The notes under the pieces: generated by a model
Seen by the model: only the letters and a program-made list of their open reading frames with translations
Database searches by the model: none
Told to the model about the DNA's origin: nothing
Made by a program: the position numbers and the translations under genes
Part shown: positions 50,059 to 57,304 of the stretch, piece after piece
Layout: each line of letters starts with the position of its first letter
How positions within the stretch are numbered: position 1 is the stretch's first letter
Origin: Parvibaculales bacterium
GTDB taxonomy: Bacteria; Pseudomonadota; Alphaproteobacteria; RS24
Direction: 5' to 3'
NCBI GenBank assembly: GCA_049889415.1
Contig: JBMHDL010000008.1
Span: forward strand, 12,372 to 76,371
Length of the DNA stretch: 64,000 nucleotides

Positions 50059-51900
50059 TCATTTTGGACGGTAAACAAGACTCTGGTCGCCAAGATTTGG
50101 GTTTTCAAATGTAGCAACGACCTCATAGTCATCAGGAAAGTTAAGCCCATTAAGGTCAAGAATTTCAATAAGAAGACTAACTGACCTTGTCATATCCTCT
50201 GAAATCAAAATCCAACTGGAAGCTATTTCATCAGGCGAAGCAGTGACGAGGATTTCATCGGCAAATTCATTTTCACCTGGATAAGAACCTACCAGCCATG
50301 CCACTTTCAAAGGTTTAAGTCCCAAATGTAAAGCTACACCAGGCAAACGCCCTGTCCAATCAATCATTCCGATGCTGGTGTCGGAAAGCGCTGTTGTTTG
50401 CCTGAGATCGGATATGGACGCATATACAGAGTATAACTTTTCGCTTGTCAGCATTTTTTCTGAATTGATACCAAACTCAGTTTCAATCAATTCATTATTC
50501 AAGGAACCATGAAACCTGTAGGGCGTATTCCTAAAATTTTCAATTTGAACATATAACAAAATACTGGCAGCTAAAAATAATACAGCACAAAGAGCTTGAC
50601 CGATCAAAATTGAAACAGTGTGATCTTCCCTCTCAAAACCGAACCACGCCAAATCAAAATATGGCAGGGCAGAAATCAAGAAAAATCCTGCATAGGCAGG
50701 AAGAAAAAATGCATAGTCATTATTTGTTCCAACCATCAGGAAATATGGAAGGAATAACAAAGGTAGATATTTAAGCCTGGATAGCTGCCTGTGTGTGTTC
50801 AAATCATTTAGCGCAAGCAGAATAACCCCAAACAAAAGAATGCGCGCAAAAGCCTCCGACACCAATTGCGGTGTGGAGTTATTGATGATTTGCACCCCTT
50901 GATACCCGGACATAAATATCAGGGCAAGTAACAGCAGAAGTCCCGCACATTTAAAACGGTCTTTTGGATCCCAATAAAATACAATCACCGCAGGCACGAC
51001 AAAAGCTAAACTGACAGCAAGTGCCGCGTGGTCAATATGCGCGAACCGCTTAAAGAGTAATTCAAAAAAAACATCCGATTTATTATGAAGATCGAAAAAA
51101 CTCGTATCATGGGAGCCGAGTAACTGAAAAAGCTCAGCACTATTTAAAAGTTGACTGACGATTTGAAAAACACCCCCAAATCCTTGGGCATAGATAACCC
51201 ACAGGCAAAGACACAATCCAGCGGCACCAGAAACAACCACCAGGCCGAGTGTTTTTCCAATACGAAAAGGATCCTGATTTAGGCTGATAAGAAAGTAGAT
51301 AATGGCCAACAATCCAATCAGAGGGGCAGCAGTGATTTTTGTTAATGTTAAGACTGGCACCAATCCGCCGAGCAGAAAACTTCGAAAAATGATGTCATGC
51401 TTTCCAGAGAGTTTTTTAAAAGACCTTATAGCGACGCCCATGACAACACAACTGACTGAGCCAACCAGTGAGTTATAGGATGGGTCCAATATTCCAATAC
51501 CGAAATAAGTTAAAAAGAGGCACCCGATCAGACCTGTTGTTATGATCATCGGGAACCTGAGCTTGTCCGTGTTCGGGGCGAGACGAAAAGCAAAAAAACA
51601 GGGGGCGCAGACAACAATGAGAATATGAAGTACGCGATTGAAAACAATTCCATTTTCCCCAAAGAAGGACTGCCAAACCTTTCCGTAGGTATGAATTTGA
51701 ACGGGGAACAAATGAGCAAATTGCGTTTGAAAAACATAATAAGCCGCATCCGTTAACTCTGGTGTTATGCGAATAAAAGACAGCAATGATAAAAAAGCAT
51801 AAAAACTTGAAGCCACCAAAGCCACCAAGGCCAAACCAATCAGACCAAGGCTTACTTGGCCTGGGCTCATCAGAAGTTTAGGCGGGTTAATCTTGATCAA
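50059..51900 (-). CDS. Polytopic membrane protein, putative GT-C-type periplasmic glycosyltransferase (Gtr type-specific position)
   Basis: 613 aa with at least 10 hydrophobic segments and an acidic first loop (PELTDAAYY). About 130 aa of soluble C-terminal domain. Overlaps the GT2 gene stop by 14 nt. The family is inferred from architecture and context only. Confidence 0.45.
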   Translation of the reverse strand: MIKINPPKLLMSPGQVSLGLIGLALVALVASSFYAFLSLLSFIRITPELTDAAYYVFQTQFAHLFPVQIHTYGKVWQSFFGENGIVFNRVLHILIVVCAPCFFAFRLAPNTDKLRFPMIITTGLIGCLFLTYFGIGILDPSYNSLVGSVSCVVMGVAIRSFKKLSGKHDIIFRSFLLGGLVPVLTLTKITAAPLIGLLAIIYFLISLNQDPFRIGKTLGLVVVSGAAGLCLCLWVIYAQGFGGVFQIVSQLLNSAELFQLLGSHDTSFFDLHNKSDVFFELLFKRFAHIDHAALAVSLAFVVPAVIVFYWDPKDRFKCAGLLLLLALIFMSGYQGVQIINNSTPQLVSEAFARILLFGVILLALNDLNTHRQLSRLKYLPLLFLPYFLMVGTNNDYAFFLPAYAGFFLISALPYFDLAWFGFEREDHTVSILIGQALCAVLFLAASILLYVQIENFRNTPYRFHGSLNNELIETEFGINSEKMLTSEKLYSVYASISDLRQTTALSDTSIGMIDWTGRLPGVALHLGLKPLKVAWLVGSYPGENEFADEILVTASPDEIASSWILISEDMTRSVSLLIEILDLNGLNFPDDYEVVATFENPNLGDQSLVYRPK

Positions 51901-52843
51901 AATTGATAATCTCTTTTTCGTACACGACTTTTCCGCCTCTTACATCACGGTGTATTTGGCTTATATATTCGCCTAAAACTCCAAAGAAGATTAGCTGTAC
52001 GCCAAACAGAAACATGACACTCATGATCAGAGTGAAAATTCCTTCGGGCGGGGATGCCAACCCAAAGATTGCAATAAAAGCAACATAAACTCCATAGGCC
52101 AAACATAAAACGGCAATCAAAAACCCCATCCAAATGCTCATTCTCAGCGGCTTTGAGTTGAACGAAAAAAAGCCTGTCATAGCCTGATCTACAAGATTGA
52201 ACACTGACAATCGTGATTTCCCATGAGCGCGTTTATCCCAATGATAGGGAAGGATGACCCGCTTATATCCGACAGACGCGATCATGGTCCGAAGAAAAGG
52301 ATATTGGCTTTCATACCCCAAAACAGCATCAACAACCTTGCGATCAAGCAACTGGAATTCACCTACCCCGTGAGGGACATCAAAATCTGACATCCAGTTG
52401 AGAAGTCTGTAGAAAATGTTTCGTGCAAAACGAAGGGGAAGTGGTTCTGCCCGTGTCTCCCTTTTCCCGGCCACAATTTCATACCCACTCTCCCAAAGTT
52501 TAATCATTTCAGGAATGAGCGTAGGCGGATCTTGCAGGTCGGCAGGCAGAAAGGGCAGCACAGCCCCACCTGAAGCACGGCGCAATCCGTTAAACATGGA
52601 ACGAAAGGGGCCATAATTTCTGGAATTGACGATTACTTTGATACGACTGTTTTTTTGGGCATGAGATTTTAAAATTTTGACTGTTTTATCGTCTGAAGCA
52701 TTATCACAAAAGATATGCTCATATTCATATTCAGGCAGATGTTTTTCAAAGACTTCCTGAACCGCTGACAGGCAATTTTCAATGCTTTTTTCTTCATTGA
52801 AACATGGAGTAATGATTGAAATTATGGGCTTTTTTGATGTCAT
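51887..52843 (-). CDS. GT2 polyprenyl-phosphate glycosyltransferase (GtrB/ArnC/DPM1-like)
   Basis: ISIITPCFNEEKSI ... FCDNASDDKT ... PADLQDPP (DxD region) ... two C-terminal TM helices, as in GtrB/ArnC. Confidence 0.85.
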   Translation of the reverse strand: MTSKKPIISIITPCFNEEKSIENCLSAVQEVFEKHLPEYEYEHIFCDNASDDKTVKILKSHAQKNSRIKVIVNSRNYGPFRSMFNGLRRASGGAVLPFLPADLQDPPTLIPEMIKLWESGYEIVAGKRETRAEPLPLRFARNIFYRLLNWMSDFDVPHGVGEFQLLDRKVVDAVLGYESQYPFLRTMIASVGYKRVILPYHWDKRAHGKSRLSVFNLVDQAMTGFFSFNSKPLRMSIWMGFLIAVLCLAYGVYVAFIAIFGLASPPEGIFTLIMSVMFLFGVQLIFFGVLGEYISQIHRDVRGGKVVYEKEIINFDQD

Positions 52844-53232
52844 GGCTTCGCGAAAATAAGTTTAAAACCTGCAAAAGAGATAAGTGCCATTGGCAAAACT
52901 AAAACTGCCTGAGCCAGTAATTCGTGGACCCCGGAAGTCACGAAGCATTCGAGTAAACCCAAGTTGATGGCAAAAACGGTAATATAGATAAAAATAAAAG
53001 GCAACACGGCCTTCATTCTGAGATTTGCAAACACACCATGACCAATAGAGAAAAAATTAAACGTCATCCCGAGCACATAAGTAGCGACCAATGACATATC
53101 TTTTGAAAAGCCACCCCCGACCAGGCATATGACAAATACGCAATATCCAAACACAGTGTTAATACCGCCTATGAGCAGGAACCTGTAAAACTGAGTGCGC
53201 GTTTCACTGCTGTTAAACCTTCGGAATTGCAT
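52840..53232 (-). CDS. GtrA-family small membrane protein (putative lipid-linked sugar translocation)
   Basis: FYRFLLIGGINTVFGYCVF followed by four TM segments. About 130 aa. The start is uncertain (53232, 53247 or 53268). Confidence 0.7.
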   Translation of the reverse strand: MQFRRFNSSETRTQFYRFLLIGGINTVFGYCVFVICLVGGGFSKDMSLVATYVLGMTFNFFSIGHGVFANLRMKAVLPFIFIYITVFAINLGLLECFVTSGVHELLAQAVLVLPMALISFAGFKLIFAKP

Positions 53233-56335: not shown

Positions 56336-57084
56336 GGTGCATTACCGGAACTCCAGAGGCTTTCCAAATGCTGCTTGTCACGAACATTATCCATCGCAGC
56401 CCAAAAACCTGCATGATGGTAACAAAAAAGCTGCCCATCAGATGCCATGTTTTCTAAGGGCCCGCGCTCTAAAATGGTCTCATTGCCATCAATGTAATCC
56501 AACACACCTTTATCGCAGACAAAAAAGCCTCCATTTATGAAGTTTTCCTCTGAACTCGGTTTTTCCCGGAAACTGGTGACCTGCGAACCTGAGATTGTCA
56601 GGGCACCATAGCGGGCTTGCGGTTGCACTGCGGTCAGCGTAACCAGACCTTCATTCTGGGCATGGAAGGCGATTTTAGCGCTTATGTCTATATCAGCTAC
56701 AGCGTCTCCATAAGTGAGACAGAATTGATCCTCAAGAAAATTTGCTGCCCTTTTAAGCCTCCCTCCAGTCATTGTGTCTTCACCCGTATCCAAAATTGTT
56801 ATTTTCCAAGGGTCGGTTATCTTGCTGTGGATCTCAACAGAGTTTGCTGACAGGTCTACCGTGATGTCATTTTGATTGTAGATATATTGCGTAAAATAAT
56901 TTTTTATGTATTCCGACTTATAACCACTCAGAATCACAAAATCATGAATGCCGTGCAGGCTGTAGATTTTCAAAATATGCCAGAGAATTGGCTTGCCGCC
57001 AATTTCAACCATTGGCTTGGGGCGGTACATGGTTTCTTCACTTATTCTGGTACCGTATCCACCGGCAAAAATAACGGCCTGCAT
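56320..57084 (-). CDS. rfbF: Glucose-1-phosphate cytidylyltransferase
   Basis: MQAVIFAGGYGTRISEETMYRPKPMVEIGGKPILWHI ... TGGRLKR ... INGGFFV ... GFWAAMD ... APWKKW is near-collinear with my recollection of Salmonella RfbF. Confidence 0.92.
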   Translation of the reverse strand: MQAVIFAGGYGTRISEETMYRPKPMVEIGGKPILWHILKIYSLHGIHDFVILSGYKSEYIKNYFTQYIYNQNDITVDLSANSVEIHSKITDPWKITILDTGEDTMTGGRLKRAANFLEDQFCLTYGDAVADIDISAKIAFHAQNEGLVTLTAVQPQARYGALTISGSQVTSFREKPSSEENFINGGFFVCDKGVLDYIDGNETILERGPLENMASDGQLFCYHHAGFWAAMDNVRDKQHLESLWSSGNAPWKKW

Positions 57085-57304
57085 AAAAACCCCCAAACAC
57101 AAACAAATAAAATCTATAAATTACATAGGGTTAACAAAATAAACTTGACAGCCATATGCTACCATTAAGAAATGAAAAGGCAAGTTTCTCGTCTTTACAA
57201 CTTTCTGCAAGAAAGCAACAGGTCATCTACAATTCTAATCTATAGATATTTAAGAAAAATGAGCAGATAACGGTTCTGACAATAGTGACCATGATGCACA
57301 ATGA

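Follow-up and report, generated by a model that had tools for sequence, protein, structure and literature searches.

Can the machinery with which bacteria decorate their surface glycans in the periplasm be supplied with a branched sugar made on cytidine diphosphate (CDP), and can the pathway for such a sugar travel together with the genes that deliver it? Periplasmic three-component glycosylation is a main way in which bacteria alter surface antigens after assembly, and the characterised donors known to us derive from uridine diphosphate (UDP)-sugars, guanosine diphosphate (GDP)-mannose or phosphoribosyl pyrophosphate (PRPP). The question is raised by seven genes in the metagenome-assembled genome of a marine Parvibaculales bacterium, which lie in an island of low G+C content (GC) at positions 50059-57304 of a 64,000-nucleotide (nt) stretch of contig JBMHDL010000008.1; this whole stretch is called the window below. 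With moderate confidence, we read the cassette as a mobile three-component periplasmic glycosylation system joined to its own pathway for a CDP-linked branched sugar.

The seven open reading frames (ORFs) are on the minus strand at 56320-57084 (57102 with the first possible start), 55244-56335, 54058-55263, 53213-54070, 52840-53268, 51887-52843 and 50059-51900, just where a first-pass annotation, made from the DNA letters, had placed seven overlapping genes. Each gene overlaps the next, by 4 to ~56 nt, so that translational coupling is suggested, and because each ORF has strong homologues elsewhere we take all of them to be real genes. The functions given in the first-pass annotation were all upheld, with the qualification that the fourth product, which had been called a Gfo/Idh/MocA-like oxidoreductase, is recognisable at the level of fold and motif only, sequence models scoring below cutoff.

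Genes for a probable CDP-linked C-methyl sugar

The first gene, rfbF (56320-57084), encodes a protein that matches the NCBIfam equivalog TIGR02623 over its full length with 376 bits (cutoff 300), as well as the Pfam NTP_transferase model, and with this identity it would act as a glucose-1-phosphate cytidylyltransferase that opens the pathway with CDP-D-glucose. Its likely start is the ATG at 57084 (MQAVIFAGG), the first start of the ORF being a TTG at 57102, and the protein is 59-64% identical to the complete copies in other cassettes. The rfbG gene (55244-56335) overlaps rfbF by 16 nt. Its product is identified in the same way, by a full-length match to the equivalog TIGR02622 with 401 bits (cutoff 278), as against only 120 bits for the model of deoxythymidine diphosphate (dTDP)-glucose dehydratase. 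As a CDP-glucose 4,6-dehydratase it would convert the first product into CDP-4-keto-6-deoxy-D-glucose. We considered a 3,6-dideoxyhexose pathway (abequose, tyvelose or paratose) and rejected it, because none of the seven cassette ORFs, all of which are otherwise assigned, is DdhC- or DdhD-like; the first-pass observation that the E1/E3 genes are missing thus stands.

The third gene (54058-55263) encodes an S-adenosylmethionine (SAM)-dependent C-methyltransferase for nucleoside diphosphate (NDP)-hexoses, of the TylC3/TcaB9/MtmC type. The protein passes the Pfam cutoffs of Methyltransf_13 (zinc ribbon), Methyltransf_23 and Methyltransf_14, including both of the models that had been proposed for checking this ORF, and it has full-length matches in the Protein Data Bank (PDB) to MtmC (4RV9, E=6e-28), TcaB9 (3NDI, 2e-23) and KijD1 (5T64, 4e-22). 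The CxxC...CxxC pairs (C12/C15 and C54/C57) and the VLDIGCNDG motif align with their counterparts in TcaB9, and Y221-H-E223-H224 aligns with the YDEH of the TcaB9 active site. By family, the enzyme would add a C-methyl group beside the 4-keto group of the CDP-sugar, probably at C-3.

The fourth gene (53213-54070) encodes a 285-aa protein to which no Pfam or NCBIfam model matches at threshold (PF01408, GFO_IDH_MocA, stays below its cutoff of 24 with 18.5 bits, E=0.0034); a profile of four sequences reaches E=0.13 against the PDB. NCBI names both this protein and the 613-aa product of the last gene 'hypothetical protein'. The AlphaFold2 (AF2) model, with a predicted local distance difference test score (pLDDT) of 82.6, has two domains, an N-terminal Rossmann domain and a C-terminal alpha/beta domain. 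Foldseek matches it to many Gfo/Idh/MocA enzymes with E-values down to 9e-12 and TM-scores up to 0.72, among them WlbA/WbpB (nucleotide-sugar dehydrogenase) and GenD2. In the alignment of four 285-aa proteins, GxGxxG, EKP (97-99), GGG (168-170) and H178 are invariant. Homologues are few, and all of those seen, across five lineages, occupy the same position in the cassette. The fold and motifs point to a divergent oxidoreductase, putatively an NAD(P)H-dependent 4-ketoreductase that would reduce the 4-keto group of the methylated sugar and so yield CDP-6-deoxy-3-C-methyl-hexose.

Proposed lipid loading and flipping, and a GT-C-like protein

The sixth gene (51887-52843) encodes a family 2 glycosyltransferase (GT2; Pfam Glycos_transf_2) of the GtrB/ArnC type. 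Its top full-length NCBIfam models are PgfS (221 bits) and ArnC (132 bits), and its full-length PDB matches are Synechocystis GtrB (5EKP, 5e-55) and three ArnC structures (1e-33 to 1e-28), with an archaeal Dol-P-Man synthase (DPMS) at 4e-12. A GT-A domain is followed by a C-terminal hairpin of two transmembrane (TM) helices. The full-length matches and this hairpin place the protein in the polyprenyl-phosphate synthase branch with GtrB, ArnC and DPMS, and not with GT2s acting on soluble acceptors, so the grouping proposed in the first-pass annotation holds. It is the most conserved protein of the cassette, 64-69% identical to those of other cassettes. In the scheme that we propose, which for the donor follows the logic of the operon, it would load the CDP-activated sugar onto undecaprenyl phosphate at the cytoplasmic face. 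The claim made in the first pass that characterised modules use UDP-sugars was too absolute, since GDP-mannose (GDP-Man) synthases exist among the characterised donor systems. Donors derived from PRPP are also known in three-component systems (PMC11127046).

Upstream of the synthase lies a gene (52840-53268) for a small membrane protein of the GtrA family, which matches PF04138 (GtrA_DPMS_TM) with 41.3 bits (cutoff 26.1), has ~4 hydrophobic segments and is 41-47% identical in other cassettes. Its start is uncertain, with candidates at TTG 53268, ATG 53247 and ATG 53232. The flippase role of GtrA proteins is in general an inferred one, and by analogy this candidate flippase may help the lipid-linked sugar to cross the membrane.

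The last gene (50059-51900) encodes the 613-aa polytopic protein, the least conserved of the cassette (33-37% identity). Comparison with Pfam and NCBIfam returned nothing even at E<=10, and a profile search of PDB sequences returned only noise (designed TM proteins). Word-indexed homology searches, with the protein itself and with a profile of 70 sequences as queries, returned the query only, the index being saturated by hydrophobic words. An exhaustive HMMER scan found a family of 732 representative clusters at E<=1e-3 (141 when the threshold is set at E<=1e-10), whose members are mostly ~600 aa long and match over their full length. When 10 members were looked up by exact sequence, two had a name at their source, in both cases 'hypothetical protein', and eight were from metagenomes only; a family search with an alignment of eight sequences led to one genome locus.

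The AF2 model of the 613-aa protein is confident (pLDDT 89.9, predicted TM-score 0.92) and has 11 clear TM helices with one or two more. Across the 70 aligned sequences the positive-inside pattern alternates cleanly, placing the N-terminus inside and an acidic loop with D51 in the periplasm. D51 is invariant in this alignment and stands in a TDExxY consensus directly after TM helix 1 (TM1); PSYN, K188, GTNN and PYR are also conserved, as is a signature of the C-terminal domain, IDxTGRxPG...GYPG. GT-C enzymes have a catalytic acidic residue in the first periplasmic loop just after TM1, and by this analogy D51 is a candidate catalytic residue. In Foldseek the top four PDB matches of the model, at probabilities of 0.96-1.00, are two ArnT entries, PglB and EmbC; among the lower matches are EmbA/B (0.97) and AftA, and transporters of the MFS family at probabilities of 0.1-0.4 and TM-scores of ~0.1. 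Fold, topology and the surroundings of the homologues described below would fit an enzyme that transfers the sugar in the periplasm with the help of Asp51. The acceptor would be an already assembled surface glycan, most likely an O-antigen or another polymer of the lipopolysaccharide (LPS) type or a capsular one.

Relatives of the cassette and rival explanations

The same gene order occurs in four further metagenomic lineages with GC from 38 to 61%, complete in two and cut by contig ends in the other two. Loci L001 and L002 (GC 0.385) have all seven genes in order, as have L006-L008; L003 and L004 (GC 0.61) have the first four genes and the start of gtrA, within which the contig ends, and in L009 and L010 rfbF is cut by the contig end. 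The biosynthetic half and the Gtr-like half are therefore inherited together, as the first-pass annotation had supposed. At L006-L008 the cassette is flanked by a Bac_transf initiating transferase on one side and a Ugd/GFO/GT4/DegT/Wzy_C region on the other, and L009 runs on into further polysaccharide genes. In these loci an integrase fragment (152 aa, weak Phage_integrase match) and an H-NS-family gene abut the 3' end of the cassette (L006 12164-12622, L007 12780-13205), as would fit an AT-rich module that was acquired recently and is subject to xenogeneic silencing. L013, from a Planktotalea metagenome-assembled genome (MAG), also has an H-NS gene.

Members of the 613-aa family were paired with a GtrB-like GT2 and a GtrA, SMR or LPG_synthase_TM protein in nine of the nine distinct contexts examined, the sugar genes differing in the more distant members. 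Like L006-L008, the loci L009, L011, L013 and L014 are of the O-antigen type and encode Wzy_C, a Wzx-like protein or Wzm/Wzt. L011 (4604-11812) has the order RfbF-RfbG-DegT-SMR-SDR-GT2-GT-C, an SMR/EamA-type protein of 113 aa taking the place of GtrA; its gene content suggests a second CDP-based variant, in which CDP-4-amino-4,6-dideoxyhexose would be delivered in the same way. Compared with the window, the identity of the GT2 drops to 34% in L011 and that of RfbF stays at 53%, suggesting that the synthase changes along with the sugar that the pathway makes. In L013 and L014, genes for GtrA, a flavin adenine dinucleotide (FAD) oxidoreductase, a methyltransferase and a GT2 are divergent from WbqC and GT-C genes, and the modules adjoin Wzy_C or Wzm/Wzt. 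This WbqC-linked block, in which the GT2, the SAM-methyltransferase, the FAD oxidoreductase and GtrA are conserved together, may represent another donor pathway, distinct from the first. WbqC-like proteins (PF08889) recur with the GT-C family, at L013 9315-11833, L014 9327-11803 and L057 1616-2308, and the GT-C gene starts 4 nt inside the WbqC gene at both L013 and L014.

Further variants are L055, L056/L059 and L057, of which L055 and L057 stand beside conjugation or insertion sequence (IS) genes. The L055 module directly adjoins a Trb/VirB-type conjugation gene set, so there it rides on a conjugative element. L055 (6136-9899, 9976-17899) also encodes two tandem polytopic proteins of ~620 aa without a Pfam family; the second is a member of the 613-aa family, and the first has a marginal profile match (E=1e-4) and a 'GTNDDAAM' motif after TM1.

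Several observations weigh against the reading of the cassette as a single CDP-fed three-component system. A promoter and terminator scan gave no above-chance signal delimiting a cassette transcript, and an empty-site test with the CMD-like gene that abuts the cassette found no sister genome without the island among 40 loci, which were at <=66% identity and none of them syntenic. The structurally characterised relatives of the methyltransferase all use dTDP-sugars. For the 613-aa model, the top four fold matches are modest (E from 2.5e-3 to 1e-2, none <=1e-3), with TM-scores of 0.34-0.41 for ArnT and PglB and 0.26/0.18 for EmbC, and the positive-inside analysis assigns no membrane side to the C-terminal domain. 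PMT_2 matches one of the 70 family members, weakly (E=6.5e-4). Alignment of the family to E. coli ArnT with hhalign gives a probability of 1.4%, and the protein is thus not a GT83 member; a viral fold library returned no significant match for the model, so there is no link to the phage Gtr(type) proteins. Because no relation at the sequence level to ArnT, to PDB entries or to phage proteins was found, we call the protein remote GT-C-like; by these comparisons it is outside every named GT-C family tested, among them PMT_2/GT83 ArnT, YfhO, DUF2142 and STT3. Of the first-pass proposal that 50059-51900 encodes a GT-C protein, what stood were the TM helices, the D51 loop and ArnT, PglB and EmbC as the top folds; the scores are modest, and no GT-C sequence model matches.

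The last of these adverse points concern the donor. A 521-kb contig carries, at L059, a module of GT-C, GtrA and a GT2 with 56% identity to that of the window, and no rfbF, rfbG, C-methyltransferase or 285-aa gene was found within 10 kb on either side. The prediction that a GT2 of the window type always travels with CDP genes failed at this locus. The link between this GT2 clade and the CDP pathway is therefore not a strict one, the sequence of the GT2 does not reveal its donor, and the transfer genes can occur without the CDP genes; no case of the biosynthetic half without the transfer half has been met so far among the loci seen. That the CDP-sugar is what the synthase loads onto the lipid carrier, which we infer from gene content, is weakened somewhat by L059.

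The same locus lends support to an account in which two independent modules travel together, the GT2 loading a common sugar, such as glucose from UDP-Glc, for the GT-C protein, and an unlinked cytoplasmic Leloir glycosyltransferase using the CDP-C-methyl sugar during ordinary repeat-unit assembly. The solved structure nearest to the GT2 is that of GtrB, an undecaprenyl phosphate-glucose synthase that uses UDP-Glc (PMC11127046), and the cassettes of L006-L009 lie among many Leloir transferases (GT4, GT2) able to use a CDP-sugar. The window itself speaks differently: the GT2 and the GT-C-like protein are the only transferases of the island, and the neighbours are housekeeping genes. Moreover, the seven coupled genes keep their order in five lineages spanning 38-61% GC, the 285-aa reductase was never found outside the cassette, and the CDP variant of L011 is joined directly to GT2 and GT-C with no Leloir transferase between. 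The GT2 also diverges to 34% where the sugar pathway has changed, as compared with 53% for RfbF. On balance we consider independent modules unlikely.

Two other accounts leave the genes together and change what they do. There is a slim chance that the sugar is tailored on the lipid, the GT2 loading glucose or 4-keto-6-deoxyglucose from the CDP donor and methylation, reduction or both following on the lipid-linked sugar. Tailoring of this kind has precedents in the epimerisation step of the decaprenyl-phospho-arabinose pathway and the deformylation step of the Arn pathway: DprE1/E2 and the ORF13 epimerase are treated in PMC11127046, and E. coli ArnD is annotated as a lipid-linked-sugar deformylase. 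A single hydrophobic stretch is also present in the 285-aa protein (170-188). In the model, however, this stretch forms a helix in the core of the Gfo fold (H171-186), and the methyltransferase, in which no TM segments were found, keeps the full soluble NDP-sugar architecture (zinc ribbon, C-terminal domain) together with the active-site motif of TcaB9 and MtmC, which act on nucleotide sugars. The chance is slighter still that the 613-aa protein is another kind of polytopic envelope protein (a polymerase, ligase, transporter or acyltransferase-like protein), with the lipid-linked sugar used by another enzyme or the GT2 having a different role. The modest Foldseek E-values, the MFS transporters among the matches and the missing sequence-level relation to any GT-C family would fit this. 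Yet the four best fold matches are all GT-C proteins, EmbA/B (0.97) and AftA also appear, and the MFS transporters have low probabilities; the first loop on the periplasmic side, which is acidic and follows TM1, holds the invariant Asp; and the family is consistently found beside GtrB-like GT2s and flippase-type proteins. Polymerase and transporter roles are, in addition, already filled in these loci, since separate Wzy_C, Wzx and Wzm/Wzt proteins share them.

The island in its genome and among known systems

In composition the island is foreign to its surroundings. GC is 0.429 over 50059-57304 and 0.536 in the rest of the window, making this the lowest-GC 7.2-kb stretch of all 64 kb, and composition shifts within ~100-200 nt at ~50,000 and ~57,300. 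GC at third codon positions (GC3) is 0.39-0.49 in the cassette genes and 0.56-0.62 in neighbouring genes, and, counting real genes, only cassette genes of the window fall below 0.5. Five 60-nt lines counted by hand in the first-pass annotation are exact (0.28, 0.30 and 0.42 against 0.62 and 0.70), but they were extreme lines; the means are 0.43 inside and 0.54 outside, a real gap of ~11 points and not 30. A richness in K, N, I and F, also reported there, is real in the soluble cassette proteins, although only modest: K 5.9 vs 4.0%, F 4.9 vs 3.0%, N 4.7 vs 3.8% and I 6.0 vs 5.2% of residues relative to the comparison proteins. The rfbF start is separated from the stop codon of purT by an AT-rich leader of 220 nt (57085..57304, minus strand), presumed to hold the promoter, with GC of 0.32-0.42 in 200-nt windows and a single weak terminator-like hairpin at 57164-57146. 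No sigma-70 match above chance was found on its minus strand; in an Rfam search of the island region the leader matched no family, the sole match being a tRNA.

This tRNA-Met (CAT; 58555-58631, minus strand) is just upstream of purT, one gene and ~1.25 kb away from the island edge. A repeat of its 3' end was looked for at the far boundary of the island and not found. Scans of the window agree with the first-pass statement that no integrase, transposase or flanking repeat is visible: no integrase or transposase was found in the window, and the search for repeats around the island remained at chance level, with none convincing. The genes around the cassette are purT, a LacI-type regulator, zwf-pgl-edd, a hydrolase, a rhodopsin, a ClC channel, rpoN and a thiolase. 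Since these are housekeeping genes, the cassette is a stand-alone insertion, and we rejected the idea that it belongs to a resident O-antigen locus of this genome. From the sharp edges in composition, and from the integrase fragment, H-NS genes and conjugation or IS genes beside its relatives, the island appears to have been acquired horizontally.

Downstream of the cassette, the ORF of the CMD-like gene (49435-50058, minus strand) starts 15 nt past the stop codon of the GT-C gene. Its true start is probably M28 at 49962, because the first 27 codons lie in the transition in composition, and the gene may be co-transcribed with the cassette. Elsewhere in the window, a gene for a bacteriorhodopsin-like protein of the proteorhodopsin type (44708-45472, minus strand; Pfam Bac_rhodopsin, E=7.6e-49) lies in a stretch at 45-46 kb with a GC of 0.459, below the window mean, that also contains a 116-aa ORF, probably spurious, with a GC3 of 0.32. 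Two adjacent genes at 15079-17214 have unusually high GC3 (0.78-0.79), and the 5-kb stretch 26001-31000 has a GC of 0.46-0.49.

The cassette shares with the Shigella and Salmonella GtrA-GtrB-Gtr(type) clusters, which glucosylate O-antigens and convert serotypes, a GT2 synthase with a TM hairpin, a GtrA protein and a putative polytopic transferase of GT-C type. Like them it is mobile and compositionally foreign, combines a conserved synthase with a variable GT-C protein, which in the gtr clusters is specific for the acceptor, and would act on an assembled glycan in the periplasm. Unlike them it has another gene order with four nucleotide-sugar genes fused upstream, its donor would be a CDP-linked branched 6-deoxyhexose in place of UDP-Glc, its GT-C-like protein has no detectable sequence relation to known families, and no prophage context was seen. 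The E. coli Arn (PmrF) operon is similar in that a dedicated sugar-modification pathway is combined with a synthase of the GtrB kind, a flippase of small size and a GT-C enzyme; the 613-aa model finds its best structural match in ArnT, and the GT2 is matched by ArnC. The Arn pathway, however, starts from a UDP-sugar (ArnA is a UDP-glucuronate dehydrogenase and ArnB a UDP-4-amino-4-deoxyarabinose (UDP-Ara4N) aminotransferase), makes an amino-pentose, targets lipid A and uses the SMR-type flippase subunits ArnE/F.

A CDP-linked C-methyl 6-deoxyhexose is known chemically, as the CDP-vinelose of Azotobacter; genes for it are not known to us, and a literature search on vinelose, of incomplete coverage, found nothing. 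For C-methylation beside a 4-keto group followed by ketoreduction there are the actinomycete TylC3, TcaB9, MtmC and KijD1 pathways and the proposed Coxiella pathway for virenose, a 6-deoxy-3-C-methyl-hexose of the LPS O-antigen (PMC3539893, PMC3204966). These differ from the cassette in using dTDP or (proposed) GDP carriers and cytoplasmic Leloir transferases, where the cassette would use CDP and a lipid carrier. The recently recognised pentofuranose three-component systems (Kelly et al., PNAS 2024) likewise handle unusual sugars with auxiliary donor-tailoring genes in O-antigen loci (PMC11127046). Their GT-C enzymes form the new family GT136, whose nearest structural analogue is ArnT, the 613-aa family being set beside GT136 by description only. 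In these systems the donor comes from PRPP through a phosphoribosyltransferase, not from a GT2 acting on a nucleotide sugar, the sugars are pentofuranoses, and the flippase is a small EmrE/ArnE-like protein, called MATE-family (PMC11127046). A literature search for a CDP-sugar or 6-deoxyhexose donor in a three-component system found no precedent, with incomplete coverage, so that this absence is not proof.

Taken with its predicted enzymes and modelled folds, the cassette looks like a credible extension of known three-component logic, in which the nucleotide carrier, the sugar type and the GT-C family would be the new parts. We are evenly divided on the stronger claim that it is the first polyprenyl-phosphate route to use a CDP-sugar and a C-methyl 6-deoxyhexose, finished by an unrecognised GT-C family that serves several exotic sugars. 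The same holds for the wider proposal, for and against which we see equal weight, that this family is a general partner of GtrB-like synthases, for C-methyl, amino and WbqC-associated sugars, in environmental Proteobacteria. If these proposals are true, the donor range of such systems would widen to CDP-activated, C-branched deoxysugars, a full sugar pathway and its delivery machinery could move as a single 7-kb unit, and the 613-aa family would merit a new CAZy family. As the cassette needs no other glycosyltransferase, it could change surface chemistry wherever it lands, and a portable module of this kind could serve glycoengineering. The GT-C-like family, with its 732 representative clusters, has been missed by current sequence models and annotated just as 'hypothetical protein'; it offers a testable handle on the surface-glycan diversity of marine bacteria.

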